Source: Candidatus Saccharimonadota bacterium (GTDB lineage Bacteria > Patescibacteriota > Gracilibacteria > BD1-5 > UBA6164). Taken from it: a DNA stretch of 32,000 nucleotides. Shown here in pieces: positions 10,243 to 27,961 of this stretch. Made by a program: the position numbers and the translations under genes. The notes below the pieces were generated by a model. The model was not told the DNA's origin, did no database searches, and saw only the letters and a list, made by a program, of their open reading frames with translations. The DNA lies in contig CP042461.1 of assembly GCA_004563595.2 (NCBI GenBank), positions 1,080,001-1,112,000 of the forward strand. The letters are read 5' to 3'. Within the stretch, counting starts at the first letter, position 1. Each line of letters opens with the position of its first letter.

Positions 10243-10878
10243 CTACCTCCTAGATGCGTTATCTAACATACTGGTTTTTCTAATCCTTTTTTTCTTTGCA
10301 TCTGTTGTATTATCTAATATCGCTTTAGATTTTTTTTCTGCTAGATTGGTCAGCTCTATAAACTCTTCTCGATAATTCCTATACAATGCACCACGCAATG
10401 AAGGGTCGATAATTTGAATATCACCTCTCGAAAGGTAATCTTTCTCTTCATTGCAAGATTTGAGGTATGTGCCAAAATGGAGCTTAAAATAAGTTAGTGG
10501 ATCGCCGTGAAGGCCCCTGTTATAGCATTCATAGCCACTAATATAGGGAGATGGATCGAACTTCTTACCTTGATTCCTGACTACTTTGGCTGCCTCCATT
10601 AATTCTTGGGCGAGCTTTTCCTTTTCCGACAATAAGTCGCCAACCGGGTTAGTAAAGCCTGAAGTATCAAAAACTTCTTCAATAGCCTGATAAGTAACAT
10701 GCAATACCTTACGTATTTCCTTATTGTTTTCAACAGCTTTTTGAATAGCTTCTTTATCTAAACAGCTAATAAATCTAGCACTAAAAAGTAATACTGTTTC
10801 TATTGCTACATTGCCCTGCTTCCCTATATATGCCTTTAGCTCATGCTCACTATAAGAAAGTAATTGATTTATCCCCAT
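10243..10878 (-). CDS. Hypothetical protein, paralogue 1 of a tandem pair (211 aa); no TGA codons, GC-richer
   Basis: Intact ORF in the standard code. It is roughly half identical by eye to the 10946-11581 product. Shared blocks include MGIxxLLSYSExELK, VLLFSAR, KFDPSPY..YECY.R..HGDP, HFG..L.SCN and GALYR. It has a basic C-terminal tail. No family was recognised. Confidence 0.75.
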   Translation of the reverse strand: MGINQLLSYSEHELKAYIGKQGNVAIETVLLFSARFISCLDKEAIQKAVENNKEIRKVLHVTYQAIEEVFDTSGFTNPVGDLLSEKEKLAQELMEAAKVVRNQGKKFDPSPYISGYECYNRGLHGDPLTYFKLHFGTYLKSCNEEKDYLSRGDIQIIDPSLRGALYRNYREEFIELTNLAEKKSKAILDNTTDAKKKRIRKTSMLDNASRR

Positions 10879-10945
10879 ACTTGAAAAAATTAAATATAAA
10901 GTATAATTTATTATAGAATTGATTTGCGGTGATATATTATTGTAT

Positions 10946-11581
10946 TTACTTGCGAGAAGAACTTTCTAAAGCACTAATCTTTTTTAATTTTTTAGCCCCT
11001 CTACTAGTCATTTGTTGTTTTATTACTTTTGATTTTTTTCCAGCAAGATAAGTCAACTTTTCAAATTCTTTGCGATGGCTCCTATATAGCGCTCCCCAGA
11101 GTGCTGGGTCAACAACTGGAACGTCACCACGCCATAGATAATTAATACCCTCTTTATTGCAAGACCCCAAAAACTCCCCGAAATGCTTTCTTAAATATTC
11201 CACTGGGTCGCCGTGCTTTTCTCTTTTATAACATTCATAGTTTGGTAAGTAGGGAGAGGGATCAAACTTTTGACCTTTCTTTTTAGCTGCTTTAGCTGCA
11301 TTCATAAGAACGCTGGCTTGAATCTTTTTGCTCTCCTGCAAGTCGCCCACACGATTTATACAGTTTGGTTCCAGCGCATCTTCAATACCTTGGTAGGATG
11401 CGTGCAATGTCTCGCGTATTTCTGCATTGGTTTCCGCAACCCTTTGAATGGTTTTTACATCTATCAAATTGATTAGCCTAGCACTAAAAAGCAATACCGC
11501 TTTTTTTGTGGTATCACTTTGTTTGCTGATATATTCCTTTAACTCGCGCTCACTATAAGAAAGTAATTCACTTATCCCCAT
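10946..11581 (-). CDS. Hypothetical protein, paralogue 2 of a tandem pair (211 aa); no TGA codons, GC-richer
   Basis: Intact ORF in the standard code and a paralogue of 10243-10878. The sequence just upstream of the start (tatatttatttttttt aagtATGGGGAT) is also duplicated. Confidence 0.75.
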   Translation of the reverse strand: MGISELLSYSERELKEYISKQSDTTKKAVLLFSARLINLIDVKTIQRVAETNAEIRETLHASYQGIEDALEPNCINRVGDLQESKKIQASVLMNAAKAAKKKGQKFDPSPYLPNYECYKREKHGDPVEYLRKHFGEFLGSCNKEGINYLWRGDVPVVDPALWGALYRSHRKEFEKLTYLAGKKSKVIKQQMTSRGAKKLKKISALESSSRK

Positions 11582-11604
11582 ACTTAAAAAAAATAAATAT
11601 AATA

Positions 11605-11640
11605 CTATTATATATAACTATTTTTTAATTCTTGTCAATA
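11605..11640 (-). promoter_or_regulatory. Putative sigma70-type promoter for the paralogue pair
   Basis: The minus strand reads TTGACA (comp 11633-11638), an 18-nt spacer, then TATATA (comp 11611-11616), about 30 nt upstream of the ATG. Confidence 0.4.
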
Positions 11641-11682
11641 CACTCCTCATTTTGCATCTCCATATATTCTGTTAAACAATAA

Positions 11683-11787
11683 TTATTTCAAAGACTGTAG
11701 TTCCTTATTAAATTTATTCAATTTATCAAAATCTATCTCCTCCAATAATCTATAAAAGTTCGAGTATTCAGCCCCTCAGGAGTACCA
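11683..11787 (-). pseudogene. Cassette boundary repeat R1: 48-nt arm plus 9-nt tRNA-Glu 3' core. The minus strand reads as a 34-codon C-terminal gene fragment.
   Basis: The minus strand from the core reads WYSG(TGA)GAEYSNFYRLLEEIDFDKLNKFNKELQSLK*. There is no start codon. Upstream of the core, homology to the other copies is lost and a terminator hairpin follows. Confidence 0.6.
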
Positions 11788-11922
11788 TAACAGATTACAA
11801 AAAAAAGCCCTCGATAGAGGGCTTTTTAGTTCAATCCCTTTTAGGTATATTTCTGTATTTTTACTATAAAATCCCCTTTGTTAGGGATATTTATAACAGT
11901 TCAATTCCCCTTAGGTCTTTAC
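11779..11922 (+). repeat. Duplicated 144-nt block, copy 2 (core, terminator, three decayed tRNA-end motifs)
   Basis: See 9263-9406. The hairpin is gccctc-gata-gagggc at 11807-11822, followed by a T-run. Confidence 0.85.
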
Positions 11923-12272
11923 ATTATAAATTCACTAAATATTATGAATAAAATATTGCTTTCAGTAGCTGAAAAGAGAGCTATAGAAGAAGGTATTGAT
12001 GGAGCTTTTGATGATGTTAAAAATATCTAAATATAATTCTGATAACCTGAATTATCGGAACTAGAATAAACTAAAAAACTTTATGTTTTCATTCCTTATT
12101 TTTAATAAGTTTATATATAGAGAACCTTATATTTCAACTTTTAATCAGTTTGGTAAATTCCAAGTGTTAAATGTTTGGTTCAAGATATTGTTTTGAAAGA
12201 AGGGTTATAATTGTTTTTGTATAGATCTATTTTTATATATAATCTTAGTATTTATTTAATGATCTCCTATAA

Positions 12273-13328
12273 ATGAAAAAAATATTAATTTTAGTTTGAG
12301 CCGGAGCAAGTAAATTTTGCAATTATACTGATAAGGGGAGCGTTAAATTTATAAATGATAATGTTAGCGACGAGTATAAAATGCCTCCTTTGGGAGATGA
12401 ATTATTTAATGAGTTAGTTAATAATGGATATAGCGAAGAATTAAGTAAATTACCCGATGATTTAAAAGAGGTGTTTAAAACAGAGGGGTTTGAAAAAGGT
12501 ATGGAAAAGTGTTTGAGTACAGATGTTAAAAATAAGGATCTAGCTATTCTTTGAACAAAGTCTCAGAAAGAAATCCAAGAATATGTGGAGCATTTGAGAA
12601 CATCGACTATTGATGAGGCTAAATTACTTAGAGAAATGTGAAAATATTTTTTGAGATTTTATATATCTACAGACGATAAAGAAAATAATCTATATTATCT
12701 TTTACTGAAAAATTTAATAGCTAATAACATAGAGCTTTCAATTTCTTCCTTAAATTATGAATGTTTGATTGAAGAAGCATTTAAGCATATCAATAATACA
12801 AATTCAAAATTTCAATTTATAAAGCCACATGGTTCTGCAAATTTCTTACCAATTATGGCTGTGAATGGAAAAATTAGGTCCTCTCAGCTTTCTATCTTGG
12901 CTGCTACAAAAATAGGTAAAATTGGGCCTACAAAGGTATTTTTAAGAGAAGATGCCTTAAATCACATCAATGGTGAAAATTGATTAATTATACCAGTAAT
13001 GTCAAGGTATATGCAGAACAAAGAAGGTTCTTTAAATGATGACTATATAAAGGAACATAAACAATATCTTAAAGAAAAAATTGAATCATCAGATAAAATA
13101 ATTGTAATTGGTGTGAAAATTACAGAAGAAGATACTCATATATGGAGTAACTTAGCAAAGTCTAAAGCTGATATCTGCTATGTTTCATGAAGTGATCTAC
13201 TATTTAATGACTGGAAAGATAAGAATAATCGTAATACTAAAAATGATATACACAGAAAAGGTTTTAGAGATATGTTTAATACAATGGACTCTTTCCCAGA
13301 TATCGTTAATAATTTTCTGACTGTTTAA
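12273..13328 (+). CDS. SIR2_2-like (DHS-like NAD-binding fold) protein, stand-alone (351 aa under table 25)
   Basis: The motif order matches the SIR2-like defence family: ILVG(TGA)AGASKF (GAGxS), PPLGDELFNEL, SSLNYECLIEEAF (TxNYDxLxE), IKPHGSANF (KxHGS), IIVIGVKITEEDTHIW. Five in-frame TGA codons are present. Track ORFs 12651 and 12999 are in frame. Confidence 0.7.
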
Positions 13329-13406
13329 AATAAATAGCCCCCTCTATTAAGGTCTTTCTTTTAAAATTTATTTACGTACTCAACTAAATTAATTTTATTT
13401 ATTTAA

Positions 13407-13508
13407 TTATACTCTCTTTATAATTTTTACAAATTCTCTCAACTTATCTAACTCTACCTCCTCCAATAACCTATAAAAGTTCAAGTATTCAACCCCTCAG
13501 GAGTACCA
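13407..13508 (-). pseudogene. Cassette boundary repeat R2: arm plus exact tRNA core. The minus strand reads as a C-terminal gene fragment.
   Basis: WYSGGVEYLNFYRLLEEVELDKLREFVKIIKRV*. An in-frame TAG lies 6 codons upstream of the core, so there is no N-terminal part. Confidence 0.6.
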
Positions 13509-13531
13509 TTTTGAAAATCAACTTTTCTAAT

Positions 13532-13575
13532 GAGTTCTAGTAAGTGACTTCTTGCTAACTAGAGCTCTTTTTTTT
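13532..13575 (+). terminator. Hairpin terminator at the start of cassette 3
   Basis: gagttctagt (13532-13541) pairs with actagagctc (13558-13567) with 1 mismatch, followed by a run of 8 T. Confidence 0.55.
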
Positions 13576-13735
13576 GTCTATTAAAAGTTCGCTACCAGAT
13601 AATTTCAAAATATTTATTTTTTTATTTATACCTATCTTAATATAGCCTCAATAAAGTTTTACAAAGGCTTAACTTGTTTATAATCTCTATCAGTTGATTT
13701 ACGATAATATATTATTATTTTTATCAAACAATAAG

Positions 13736-15019
13736 TTAATAATCTATTTGACTCTCATAATCTAGAATATGTGAGTATTTTTCTTTATATTCTTCTAAAT
13801 TAAAATATTCTAATATCATTTCATTAGCATTGTAAAATGAAATTAAAAGATCTCTATATCCATCAAAATTAAGTTTTCCATCTATTCTGAAAAGCTTATT
13901 TTTTTTACATGATAATTTAGGGTAATTAGATAATAATTTTTCTTTTCTTTTATTTAAATTGTCTATATCATAAAATAATATAGACCCATCAAAATGTTCA
14001 ATAACATTATCTTCTATATTAAACTTAGAATGAATTAATCTATTATAATAATAATCTTTATATTTATTTTCTCATATTTCTTCAATTAAAAAAGAATTAT
14101 CTCTTTGATCTATATTAAAGTCCGTATAGTAAATCTTATTTCAAAAATAATTATCAAATTTTTTATTTAACCTCTTTTTCCTTGTAAATAATACTTTATC
14201 AGACTTTGTAAAAAATTTATCAATACTAAACTCTGGTCAGAAAAATAATCCTCAAAGGAAAATAAATTCTTTATAGTTTTCTTTACCAATAATTTTATTA
14301 AAATTTAATTTTATTTTGAACTTACATTCATCTGAGTTATTTTTATATAATCAAAAGAAGTCAAAAACAAAAGGAGTTATAATACCTAAATCAAAAAATA
14401 AATCATCATAATAAATGAAGTAATCTTTCAAAAAAATTCATTCCCTATTATAGTTTATTTCTAAATCTGTAATATCTAATAATAAGTCTTTATCTATTAG
14501 TTCTAAAATATTAGGAAATTTCTCAAAAAAATCTTTTTTGCTTATGTTTGGAATTGTATTTTTTATTTCCTGATCTTTTGTAATACTATCAATTATTTCA
14601 TTCGCATCTTTTACATTATTTTCATTAATATATCTTATTATATAATCTCGATCTATTCATTCTATCTGGTCTGATAATATTGAACATATATCCTCTACTT
14701 TTTCCTTATATAAAAATTTAATTAAATCTTTATATAAGGAAATTAGTATTTCTTTTATATCTTGTATATTATTTTCACCTTTTAACCTAGATAATTCTTT
14801 AATATACCTTAATTTTTTAAGGTCTAATGGTATTGGATAAAAATCTAAACAAATTTCACTTTTTATTAAGTCATCATAATTTGCAATCGATTTAAGAGAA
14901 TTAATCGTATACAATAATTCTAATTTACCACTAGTAAAAACATGCTCTTTTTTATAAAATTTTTTCTTCTCTAAAGTTAGTTTTTCAATATATCACAATA
15001 TTAATTCTTTTTTATTCAT
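13736..15019 (-). CDS. Hypothetical protein (427 aa under table 25), no recognisable domain
   Basis: I checked every codon from 13736 to 14657: the frame contains no TAA or TAG and 8 TGA codons. Track ORF 14657-14914 is in frame. Start is ATG at comp(15017-15019). The sequence is very K/N/I/Y/F-rich. Confidence 0.7.
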
Positions 15020-15099
15020 AATTATATAAATAATAGATTACTAAATACATATATTCTAATTATTACCTGGAATACTTAAGCATATCAACTCTACTCAAT

Positions 15100-15159
15100 T
15101 CTTCTGAATATAGTTAATAAACTGTTAAAAATTCTAAATCCCCTCTATCAGGAGCACCA
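15100..15159 (+). repeat. Cassette boundary repeat R3 (degenerate arm plus core GGAGCACCA)
   Basis: aaatcccctctatcaggagcacca compares with cagcccctcaggagtacca. The minus-strand remnant YSEELSRVDMLKYSR* echoes LLEEIDFDKLNKF but is frameshifted. Confidence 0.45.
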
Positions 15160-15188
15160 ATTTTTAAATAAGGATAAGTTATTTATAG

Positions 15189-16118
15189 TTAAATATTCAT
15201 GGAATCAATAAGATATCTTCAAGATTCAAGATACCTTCATAAATCTGGGATTTCAATCATCTCACTTTTTCTACTATGCACAATATCATTTCTTAACTTT
15301 ATTCATGTAGCAATATCTTTAACTTTATCCTTTAGCGTTTCTCAAAAAAAATCCTCATCTATGCATCTAATGATTTCTTTTAATCAATCTTTTTTACTTC
15401 TCATATAATCAGAAACCTTTTCATCACTTCAAAGCTGTTGTAATAAATATCTTTTTGTTATTATTTCTATTGTGATTATTAATATTATTAATGATTCTTG
15501 CTTATGATTGTCTTTGAATAATCTCACTGCATTCATATAAAAAATTTCCTCAAGACCTATTTGCTCTTCTCACATAAGAATTTTATGAATGTTACTTATT
15601 TCTTCTTCTGTTCTATTTGCTCTTAGCAATGACCATCAAGTTGATGACATAAATAAATTTGATGCGCAACTACTACTTTCTCATACTTTATGGTGGCAAA
15701 TAGTAAATTCTCTCATATCTTCTTTTGATTCAATACCTCATATCTGAAATCTTCCAGTAATTAATCTGTATGAATCTATAAAATCATTTATAATATTTTT
15801 ATAGTATTTCCAGTAAAATCACTCTAAATTATCAAATGGTATTCCTAACTGCAATAAAGGAATAAATACTCTTAATCTACTGAACCTGAAAGCCGCATTT
15901 CTATCTGTTGCTATTTCCATATTTGTCGATTGTCAAAATCGTTCATCAAAACTTTGACGTACGTCTTCGATAACAATAACATATGGTTTTTTATTTCCAT
16001 TAAATTCAAACCTTCATTCTATTAAACGTCATCTATCGATGTGAAAACATATATCGCTTTCATAAGAAATTTCTATATATTCATCCATTCACAAATATTC
16101 ATTCATTGTTTTATTCAT
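15189..16118 (-). CDS. HEPN-domain protein (Rx4H motif), putative abortive-infection-type RNase (309 aa under table 25)
   Basis: I checked every codon: there is no TAA or TAG, and about 20 TGA=Gly. The C-terminal helical domain carries IKLRNDIVHSRK (R-x4-H at comp 15276-15293). The N-terminal roughly 190 aa are unassigned. Confidence 0.65.
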
Positions 16119-16258
16119 ACTATTGTTATTATAGAAGATAATAAACAAGATTTTTATTATCACATCAACATCACTTTTATTAAATAATACTGACTACATA
16201 TTAACAGGACATTAATATTTGAAAGTTTCTTTTACTTTTCAGTTGACTAGATATAAGT

Positions 16259-16399
16259 TTATTGTGATCAAGAAGATAAATCATATAGAAGCTTAATTTG
16301 ATACAGTTTGTATTTCTTTAAAAAATAATTTTAATTCCTCTAAATCAATCTCCTCCAACAATCTATAAAAGTTCGAGTATTCAGCCCCTCAGGTGTACC
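16259..16399 (-). pseudogene. Cassette boundary repeat R4: arm plus core (GGTGTACCA). The minus strand reads as a C-terminal gene fragment.
   Basis: WYTGGAEYSNFYRLLEEIDLEELKLFLKKYKLYQIKLLYDLSSGSQ*. The arm at 16343-16399 differs from R1 at 3 of 57 positions. Confidence 0.6.
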
Positions 16400-16411
16400 A
16401 TAACAAACTAC

Positions 16412-16440
16412 AAATAAAAAGCCCTCATAAGAGGGCTTTT
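16412..16440. terminator. Bidirectional hairpin terminator, probably the original tRNA-Glu/cysK terminator
   Basis: aaataaaaa, then gccctc-ataa-gagggc, then ttttt. It is similar to the hairpins at 9283-9311 and 11799-11827. Confidence 0.7.
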
Positions 16441-16512
16441 TATCTGTGAAAAATTGTATATCTTCCCATTCTTATATTATACACCTCGCTTCTATCATTT
16501 AACTCTATTCTT

Positions 16513-27628: not shown

Positions 27629-27961
27629 TTACGCTCTTCCACAAAGACAATAAAATTCGGGATTATTTTGAGCGTCTATTACAGAGGTTACAGCTTGTTT
27701 AAGATTTACAAAGTCCTTTACTACTGGATTTTTTTTCAAAAATAATGAACATAGATTTCGAGCATCAATTTGATCAAAAATTTTTGCCTTATAGATCAAC
27801 CTATGACAAAAATTGCACTCCTTCATAAATCCTATTGCTAATGCAACTTCAACCCCTTTGGTAGGTTGAAATATATCATGTGCAACATGTCCCATAGTAA
27901 CTTTTCCTCGCGATAAGTGAATCAAGCACCGAGAGTATATAAGCATATTTGACTCTGTCAA
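27629..27961 (-). CDS. Hypothetical protein (about 105-110 aa); start unclear (TTG at 27961 or ATG 5 codons in)
   Basis: Uninterrupted ORF with no TGA, directly downstream of the DUF4015-like gene. No family was recognised. Confidence 0.4.
   Translation of the reverse strand: MTESNMLIYSRCLIHLSRGKVTMGHVAHDIFQPTKGVEVALAIGFMKECNFCHRLIYKAKIFDQIDARNLCSLFLKKNPVVKDFVNLKQAVTSVIDAQNNPEFYCLCGRA

Follow-up and report, generated by a model that had tools for sequence, protein, structure and literature searches.

Evidence for import of two tandem TGA-free genes from standard-code marine bacteria into a recoded gracilibacterial genome on a repeat-bounded module at tRNA-Glu

Analysis of a 32,000-nucleotide stretch of the genome of "Candidatus Gracilibacteria bacterium 28_42_T64" (GenBank contig CP042461.1, positions 1,080,001 to 1,112,000; called the window below) revealed two adjacent genes, PAR1 and PAR2, that encode paralogous proteins and contain no in-frame TGA. 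The organism uses code 25, in which TGA is read as glycine, and the PAR2 protein is identical to A9Q91_05080. Import of the two genes on a mobile module, out of a standard-code gene pool, is well supported. Four independent lines of evidence carry this conclusion, because the closest homologues are proteins of standard-code Gammaproteobacteria, because the GC content at third codon positions (GC3) and the codon choice match the donors' elements and not the resident genome, because the diversity of the family, together with its distant relatives and a partner gene, sits in standard-code marine bacteria, and because the pair lies between direct repeats that start in the 3' end of a tRNA-Glu gene. 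The pair most probably travelled as passengers of a small integrase-less mobile module in a tRNA-Glu island that was built by repeated site-specific insertion, with a family that stems from standard-code marine bacteria.

The pair is arranged as follows.
10243..10878, minus strand: PAR1, 211 amino acids (aa), the more divergent paralogue; 12 Gly codons (7 GGC), no TGA; GC 0.368; GC3 0.325; TAG stop
10879..10945, minus strand: spacer of 67 nucleotides (nt); its final 21 nt, next to the start codon of PAR1, are a duplicate of the leader of PAR2
10946..11581, minus strand: PAR2, 211 aa; 12 Gly codons, no TGA; GC 0.390; GC3 0.344; TAA stop

The two proteins are 51% identical (108/212 positions, E value of 2e-73), and at the DNA level 10676-10899 and 11379-11602 form a repeat of 73% identity that takes in the 21 nt before each ATG. 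Comparison of the two copies revealed dN of 0.36 and dS of about 1.85 (nonsynonymous and synonymous substitutions per site, respectively), which corresponds to a dN/dS ratio of about 0.2. Both copies are thus under purifying selection, and their synonymous sites are saturated. An earlier note, made by reading the letters of the window, had described two tandem 211-aa paralogues with TAG and TAA stops, 24 Gly codons that are all GGN, a duplicated sequence upstream of each start, conserved blocks and lysine/arginine-rich tails. All of these observations were reproduced, including the blocks KFDPSPY, YECY.R..HGDP, HFG..L.SCN and GALYR in the alignment and the basic tails, each with 11 K+R among its protein's last 35 residues.

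In the window, the use of only TAA and TAG as stops yields long open reading frames (ORFs) for ftsZ, ftsA, purA, cysK and other genes, with many in-frame TGA codons. Across the other 25 window genes, TGA accounts for 308 of the 603 Gly codons (51%). The probability of finding no TGA among the 24 Gly codons of the pair (12 GGN codons in each paralogue) is 3.5e-8 under a binomial model and 8e-4 under a beta-binomial model fitted to the gene-to-gene spread. The count of 13 TGA codons in ftsZ given by the earlier note is right, whereas its figure of about 20 for the HEPN gene has to be corrected to 15. Nor are PAR1 and PAR2 the only sizeable genes that are intact in the standard code, as had been claimed; TGA is likewise absent from the 248-aa gene at 9412..10158 and the 105-aa gene at 27629..27946, which have only 3 and 5 Gly codons, respectively. 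The latter, on the minus strand (no TGA in 5 Gly codons, GC 0.336), is too short for judgement.

Lack of TGA is by itself no proof of foreign origin, because the native EF-Tu gene on a related recoded contig (L004) has no TGA among 40 Gly codons; the S10 gene of the same contig has none among 6, and the native rplK gene in the window has one among 14 with a GC3 of 0.14. The claim that the pair is foreign and GC-richer than its surroundings was upheld within the window by GC, GC3 and codon choice. The other window genes have a mean GC of 0.306 (maximum, 0.344) and a mean GC3 of 0.193 (maximum, 0.300); GC3 is 0.11 in ftsZ and 0.17 in cysK. PAR1 and PAR2 have the highest GC and GC3 in the window, with GC3 z scores of 3.0 and 3.5, respectively. 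Scored under the codon usage of the window, their synonymous-codon choice was 2.8 and 3.7 standard deviations worse than that of native genes, and it fitted the element of Pseudoalteromonas piscicida better. GGC makes up 7 of the 12 Gly codons of PAR1 and about 2% of the background Gly codons. The GC3 of the pair (0.33 to 0.34) resembles that of the P. piscicida and P0002 homologues (about 0.32), in contrast to that of the window (0.19).

Searching for relatives revealed a tiny family. A word-indexed search of 5.8 billion proteins returned 10 matches, and a profile search that went exhaustively through 1.8 billion cluster representatives returned 10 clusters with E values below 1e-30 and 18 further weak clusters that match only the C-terminal core. 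Scans of genomes and of metagenome contigs added one locus each. The nearest relatives are standard-code proteins of 283 to 293 aa with 63 to 69% identity, from P. piscicida isolates, a Colwellia metagenome-assembled genome (MAG) and metagenome contigs; the P. piscicida homologue comes from a cultured organism and is present on 10 isolate contigs. Rather than being confined to other genomes with translation table 25, the closest homologues thus belong to standard-code Gammaproteobacteria. PAR2 is the copy nearest to them (up to 69% identity), and a closer relative of PAR1 was looked for but found nowhere. Two other TGA-recoded genomes carry copies that are less similar (49 to 57% identity). 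A conserved C-terminal core of about 210 residues is present in PAR1 and PAR2, and the phmmer matches had E values of 4e-88 to 1e-73. With the long forms, the pair shares the motifs KFDPSPY, YECY..HG.P, HFG..L..CN and AGKKS and the basic C-terminal tail, and it lacks their N-terminal extension of about 80 residues. The distant branch of the family is homologous to the close group (hhalign, 99.3%). All four short forms of the recoded genomes begin at the same alignment column, and a short form of 201 aa was also found on a standard-code TARA contig. A remnant of the N-terminal extension was sought upstream of PAR2 and rejected, as the similarity stops about 3 codons beyond the start.

Analysis of the standard-code loci revealed a conserved operon in which every long form occupies the second place. 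The operon comprises seven genes, which encode, in this order, a protein of about 680 aa, the homologue, four further proteins (about 190, 125, 350 and 262 aa) and a Trypsin_2 protease. In P. piscicida it follows genes for MobC-like and relaxase-like proteins, a TraG/TrwB coupling protein and a DnaJ-domain protein, with AlpA and BrxR genes nearby, and this locus has the make-up of a mobilizable island. The gene directly upstream of the homologue in standard-code loci, here called the partner gene, encodes about 620 to 690 aa, and the partners are mutually homologous (E values of 4e-17 to 4e-19). A Cellulophaga-labelled MAG (L015) carries a MobC-like gene, a relaxase gene, a type IV coupling protein (T4CP) gene, a DnaJ gene, two genes without assignment, a 619-aa partner gene and the homologue. 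In a Neptuniibacter MAG (L017), a 629-aa partner gene and the homologue come right after a full-length Avs2 gene. On a further standard-code contig (L023), a 2.1-kb unit at 9862-12084 directly follows tRNA-Met and tRNA-Leu genes, and its 138-nt direct repeats (99% identical) enclose only a 314-aa homologue and a 281-aa tyrosine integrase (PF00589, E value of 1.7e-12). From these contexts, the family therefore belongs to integrated mobile elements of standard-code marine bacteria.

Three side observations concern the same loci. The strictly conserved and unannotated seven-gene operon recurs on L001, L002, L008 and L010-L014, in mobilizable islands of marine Gammaproteobacteria, and is a candidate for a novel multigene system. 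The antiviral STAND gene Avs2 of L017 occupies 3498-10777 and scores 1654 bits in PADLOC. On L023, the second repeat copy is followed by a further gene, a hint that this locus may be a cassette array as well.

All-against-all BLASTP identified the homologue as the only gene common to the gammaproteobacterial elements and Gracilibacteria; by the same comparison, the partner gene is absent from the window and from L004 and L019, the contigs of the two other recoded genomes. On L004 (contig GC 0.27), the copy at 10001-10636 has 2 TGA among 9 Gly codons and a GC3 of 0.23. Both in-frame TGA codons, translated as Trp in the public record, align with Gly of the relatives, which supports the reading of TGA as Gly rather than Trp in this organism. 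The copy lies in a 1.7-kb module together with a 185-aa gene whose codon use is native-like, with TGA for 8 of its 16 Gly codons. A 52-nt direct repeat (96% identical) of the 3' half of tRNA-Met brackets this module; genes for a type IV secretion system (T4SS) are nearby, outside the module. The L019 copy (contig GC 0.256, TGA 51% of Gly codons) has no TGA among 8 Gly codons and a GC3 of 0.22. In each of the three recoded genomes, the GC3 of the homologue exceeds that of its surroundings. The genomes thus form a series from the window (0/24 TGA, GC3 0.33) through L019 (0/8, 0.22) to L004 (2/9, 0.23).

Analysis of the DNA around the pair revealed an island that begins at a tRNA-Glu gene and is punctuated by related repeats.
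9197..9271, plus strand: tRNA-Glu gene (anticodon CTC), the putative target of integration, found by ARAGORN and by Rfam tRNA (57.8 bits); its last 14 nt open the direct repeat
9258..9405, unstranded: repeat copy A, with att-like core TGGGAGTACCATAAC at 9261-9275, terminator hairpin at 9286-9315 and T-arm-like fragment at 9382-9400
9412..10158, minus strand: HNH-like gene, 248 aa; GC 0.225; native-like codon use (log-likelihood, -0.769); no TGA among 3 Gly codons
10178..10209, unstranded: partial copy (32 nt) of the left arm (P arm) of the repeats, between the HNH-like gene and PAR1; copies of this piece start at 10178, 11724, 13445 and 16337
11696..11921, unstranded: repeat copy B, with P arm at 11696-11773, core CAGGAGTACCATAAC at 11777-11791, hairpin at 11802-11827 and T-arm-like fragments at 11828-11846 and 11898-11916
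12273..13328, plus strand: third module, one gene of 351 aa that matches AbiH and PDC-S21 weakly; 5 TGA among 19 Gly codons
13417..13548, unstranded: repeat copy C, with P arm and core (13498-13512), 63% identical to copy B
13736..16118, minus strand: last module, a 427-aa gene at 13736-15019 (GC 0.19, 8 TGA) and a HEPN-like gene of 309 aa at 15189-16118 (15 TGA)
16309..16441, unstranded: repeat copy D, with P arm, core CAGGTGTACCATAAC at 16390-16404 and terminator hairpin; distal end of the island, just before cysK

The stretches 9258-9405 and 11774-11921 form a 148-nt direct repeat of 91% identity. Four occurrences of the core CAGGAGTACCATAAC, all on one strand, were located (9261, 11777, 13498 and 16390; chance expectation, 0.37). 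An arm of about 75 nt to the left of the core is common to copies B, C and D, the terminator hairpin to its right is common to copies A, B and D, and further fragments resembling a tRNA T arm start at 9382, 11828 and 11898. The repeats, which are putative attachment (att) sites, split 9272-16440 (about 7 kb) into four modules that carry the HNH-like gene, PAR1 and PAR2, the AbiH/PDC-S21-like gene, and the 427-aa and HEPN-like genes. The PAR module alone is compositionally foreign; the HNH-like gene is native-like, and the remaining modules are rich in TGA. The HNH-like gene matches PHROG 10503 (E value of 1e-57), shows a weak HNH_5 match and 36% identity to a hypothetical protein of Bacteriophage R18C, and is probably a separate, older module. 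The 427-aa ORF at 13736-15019 had no match in Pfam or PADLOC. The 32-nt piece of the P arm looks like a remnant of a module junction. Repeat-bounded modules beside tRNA genes are present in three genomes, namely, those of the window, L004 and L023.

The left arm of copies B, C and D contains an open minus-strand frame with the conserved peptide WYSGGAEYSNFYRLLEE[IV][DE] (11686-11800, 13410-13526 and 16296-16439). The stop lies at about the same place in the three copies, and the differences are conservative. Interpretation of the arm as a small gene was rejected, as a start codon is missing from the conserved frame. The frame may be what is left of the C-terminal end of a gene, for example, a lost recombinase, that formerly lay next to the att core. 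The repeats were also considered as a known RNA family, and Rfam recognized only the real tRNA. A published PTD-repeat gene that was considered as a neighbor is not in the window.

The following history would account for these data. The family would have evolved in standard-code marine bacteria on integrated mobilizable elements, where an in-frame TGA is impossible. A copy trimmed to the conserved C-terminal 210 or so residues would then have entered Gracilibacteria, and an already diverged tandem pair would have been placed at tRNA-Glu as one unit, presumably by a recombinase acting in trans. Duplication after the truncation is indicated because the truncated start and an AT-rich leader are common to both copies, and divergence before arrival is indicated by saturation at their synonymous sites. 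Most simply, the copies would have diverged outside the mutational regime of this genome and arrived together. The pair would have kept its donor-like GC3 and its GGN-only Gly codons because its residence has been short relative to the mutation pressure of the genome, and the copies in the two other recoded genomes would have adapted further, with lower GC3 and, in one case, two TGA-encoded Gly residues. The direction of transfer, the trans-acting recombinase and the joint arrival of the pair are inferred. A transfer from the standard code to code 25 is favored because the diversity and the partner gene lie in standard-code bacteria, because each recoded copy is richer in GC3 than its genome, and because a gene with TGA-encoded Gly would be non-functional after transfer in the reverse direction.

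Several points weigh against this history. No standard-code tandem pair of short forms was found, and no donor above 69% identity is known. For this reason, and because the copies are saturated at synonymous sites, the acquisition can be called recent only in a relative sense; of the proposal in the earlier note that the pair was recently acquired from a standard-code donor, the standard-code source stands and the recency stands in part. Saturation of dS without drift to the resident composition requires an unseen intermediate vehicle or host. No integrase or recombinase was detected among the island proteins with Pfam and PADLOC, and it is the repeats that suggest mobility of the module. In a neighbor-joining (NJ) tree, the L004 and L019 copies grouped together (94%) and with the Colwellia-type long forms (79%), and the branching of the window copies received support of 4 to 17%. 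Signature residues place PAR2 with the Pseudoalteromonas type and the L004 and L019 copies with the Colwellia type; the short forms share their start column but differ in signature type, and Gracilibacteria may have been entered either once or twice. The assignment of a homologue to Colwellia comes from a MAG contig (GC 0.30), the background statistics come from the 32-kb window, and the statement on function made below comes from gene neighborhood.

The most substantial competing explanation is that the module still moves between, or is readable in, both codes, so that selection and not short residence excludes TGA. It would fit the low count of TGA in the short forms of the three recoded genomes (2 among 41 Gly codons; P = 4e-10 at p = 0.5), the saturation of PAR1 and PAR2 without drift to the resident GC3 or gain of TGA, and the description of TGA-free phages predicted to infect Gracilibacteria (PMC10746230). 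However, the L004 module has 8 TGA among the 16 Gly codons of the gene next to the homologue and 2 TGA in the homologue itself, which makes it unusable in a standard-code cell. The L004 and L019 copies show the partial decay of GC3 expected if they adapt passively to the composition of the resident genome, genes for integrase, transfer or replication are absent from the window module, and no match was found in phage, plasmid or IMG/VR collections. This explanation is therefore considered unlikely. The earlier note had offered a mobile element or phage that has to work in both codes; the mobile module is supported by the repeats, no phage hallmark or phage match was found, and a need to work in both codes is possible but not called for. 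A more specific version is rather improbable as well. Here the short forms would be miniature att-bounded modules that still cross the boundary dividing codes 25 and 11, from epibiont to Alteromonadales host and back, the truncated protein would be a partner-less decoy against the two-protein system of the host's element, formed by the homologue and its partner of about 650 aa, and selection would keep TGA out. If it were true, the gene would directly mediate the interaction of epibiont and host.

Reverse transfer, in which the family would be native to Gracilibacteria and a TGA-free copy would have gained the N-terminal extension and the partner in Gammaproteobacteria, has in its favor that only a TGA-free gene could travel in this way and that the short form corresponds to the core conserved across the family. 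It is nevertheless very unlikely, given that the diversity, the partner gene and the distant relatives are all found in the standard code, in at least two phyla, that a short form is also present on the standard-code TARA contig, that the copy is richer in GC3 than its surroundings in all three recoded genomes, and that the recoded copies branch within or beside the long forms in the NJ tree. Slightly harder still to sustain is the idea that PAR1 and PAR2 are native, highly expressed genes that dodge TGA-encoded Gly by translational selection, as genes for ribosomal proteins and EF-Tu do. Such avoidance is real in rplK (1/14) and in the EF-Tu (0/40) and S10 (0/6) genes of L004, but native genes that avoid TGA have a low GC3 (rplK 0.14, ftsZ 0.11, cysK 0.17) whereas that of the pair is the highest in the window. 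The codon choice of the pair is also about 3 standard deviations worse than that of native genes, its nearest relatives are gammaproteobacterial, and it lies in a repeat-bounded block beside a tRNA gene. An assembly chimera or contamination, with Colwellia or Pseudoalteromonas DNA misjoined into the gracilibacterial genome, is the least credible of these alternatives. The sample was dominated by Colwellia (PMC6851277), and one short-read contig ends exactly at repeat copy B, but the genome is closed and manually curated (Sieber et al. 2019; PMC6851277) and four contigs of independent assemblies show the same arrangement. No standard-code sequence is closer than 69% identity, the genes lie as truncated forms, with leaders rich in AT, between gracilibacterial repeats, and homologous short forms occur in two other recoded genomes. 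The short-read contig in question (L025, Logan SRR3580189) ends 195 nt upstream of PAR2, at the start of copy B (about 11776); either the repeat broke the assembly here, or the population may be heterogeneous at this junction.

Import on a mobile module was also compared with known systems. Islands at tRNA genes are a known layout (PMC4383910), captured in the Islander/TIGER concept, and serial integrations parted by partial tRNAs are known from the tycheposon islands of Prochlorococcus (bioRxiv 10.1101/2020.12.28.424599). The window island resembles these in that it adjoins the 3' end of tRNA-Glu, carries a displaced fragment of the tRNA 3' end at its module borders with four cores in the same orientation, holds modules with unrelated cargo, including defense-like genes, of mixed composition and age, and has degenerate tRNA fragments scattered through it. 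Unlike them, it contains no detectable integrase, not even a fragment, in 7 kb; its repeats are long (about 130 to 150 nt), with a conserved non-tRNA arm and a terminator hairpin; and it lies in a code-25 bacterium belonging to the candidate phyla radiation (CPR) with one module of standard-code origin. Among streptococcal integrative and conjugative elements, cis-mobilizable elements (CIMEs) are att-flanked elements that lack recombination and transfer genes. The window modules are similarly short, have att-like direct repeats and no integrase or transfer genes, and stand in tandem with related modules, but no cognate integrative element was found in the window and the likeness is one of sequence.

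TGA-free phages compatible with the standard code have been predicted for Gracilibacteria and Absconditabacteria (PMC10746230). The pair shares with them foreign DNA without in-frame TGA, TAA and TAG stops and a code-25 host. In contrast to these phages, the PAR module is a chromosomal segment of 1.5 kb without phage hallmark genes or matches in phage collections, only the neighboring HNH-like gene and neither PAR1 nor PAR2 matches a PHROG, and TGA is abundant in the gene that shares the related L004 module. The relaxase/T4CP islands of marine Gammaproteobacteria and Bacteroidota have in common with the pair the homologous C-terminal 210 or so residues (E values down to 1e-88), with motifs and tail kept. 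They differ in that the window copies form a tandem duplication and are without the N-terminal extension, the partner and the genes that follow in the operon.

The earlier note could not place the proteins in any family, and this still holds after searches of Pfam, NCBIfam, PHROGs, PADLOC and PDB sequences and with Foldseek. Pfam, NCBIfam, PHROGs and PADLOC gave nothing significant for the paralogues; in PADLOC, the window proteins and the partner had no match and the long form gave only subthreshold noise. A sequence-profile search of the PDB returned nothing, nor did a search with the partner protein. No match was obtained by tblastn of the paralogues against 50,697 phage records, by tblastn of close and distant family members against phage and plasmid collections, or by IMG/VR scans with the paralogues, the protein profile and the repeat arm. 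AlphaFold2 with a 36-sequence alignment produced a confident all-helical model of PAR2 (predicted local distance difference test [pLDDT], 94; predicted template modeling score [pTM], 0.82). With 11 sequences the model had been poor (pLDDT of 67) and gave Foldseek matches without meaning; with the model of pLDDT 94, Foldseek found no neighbor in the PDB and BFVD (best E value above 1). No catalytic site was identified, and hydrophobic or structural residues make up most of those conserved throughout the superfamily. The proteins are basic, and in the model the conserved AGKKS motif is followed by a K/R-rich tail predicted to be helical; the basic tails examined have 9 to 11 K+R in the last 35 residues.

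The neighborhoods point two ways, to mobilization (relaxase, T4CP) and to defense (Avs2, BrxR, type I restriction-modification, HEPN-like and AbiH-like genes), the defense-gene neighbors being context only. Linkage to T4CP or T4SS genes was found in L001 and L015 (relaxase and T4CP) and not in L017, L019, L021 and L023. A functional T4SS linkage, suggested by L004 and by a VirB4-like gene of the window, was downgraded, as the tRNA-Met att repeat splits the gene from the T4SS genes in L004. The VirB4/TraG-like P-loop ATPase gene of the window (4663-6321, plus strand; Pfam P-loop_TraG and AAA_10; 616 aa in public annotations) stands alone between genes for a SpoIIE-like phosphatase and a symporter, about 4 kb from the island. 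The partner was considered as an NTPase, and no Walker A motif was found. Tentatively, the protein may be a non-enzymatic all-helical adaptor with a basic tail that serves a mobile element in a conflict of element and host of the defense-island type. In the donors it might work with the partner of about 650 aa through its variable N terminus, and Gracilibacteria might have kept a partner-independent core.

The data describe a clean, well-delimited entry of genes into a code-25 CPR bacterium from standard-code bacteria, with a visible vehicle, and a natural series across three recoded genomes that leads from no TGA to the first TGA-encoded Gly residues. It appears that the gracilibacterial genome assembles a variable island through the serial insertion of integrase-less modules at a tRNA gene. 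The mechanism, an island made by insertion at a tRNA gene, is known; noteworthy are the crossing of a genetic-code boundary, the pointer to the order of the suspected host and an uncharacterized cargo family without a known fold relative. Colwellia psychrerythraea was proposed, for ecological reasons, as the likely partner of 28_42_T64 (PMC6851277), and the donor pool consists of mobile elements of Alteromonadales, of Pseudoalteromonas and Colwellia types, the order of the suspected host. The genes therefore provide independent, sequence-based evidence that can guide host identification in an uncultured lineage. The family, as the sole gene besides the integrase in one element (L023), is a reasonable target for studies of the maintenance or conflict functions of mobile elements.

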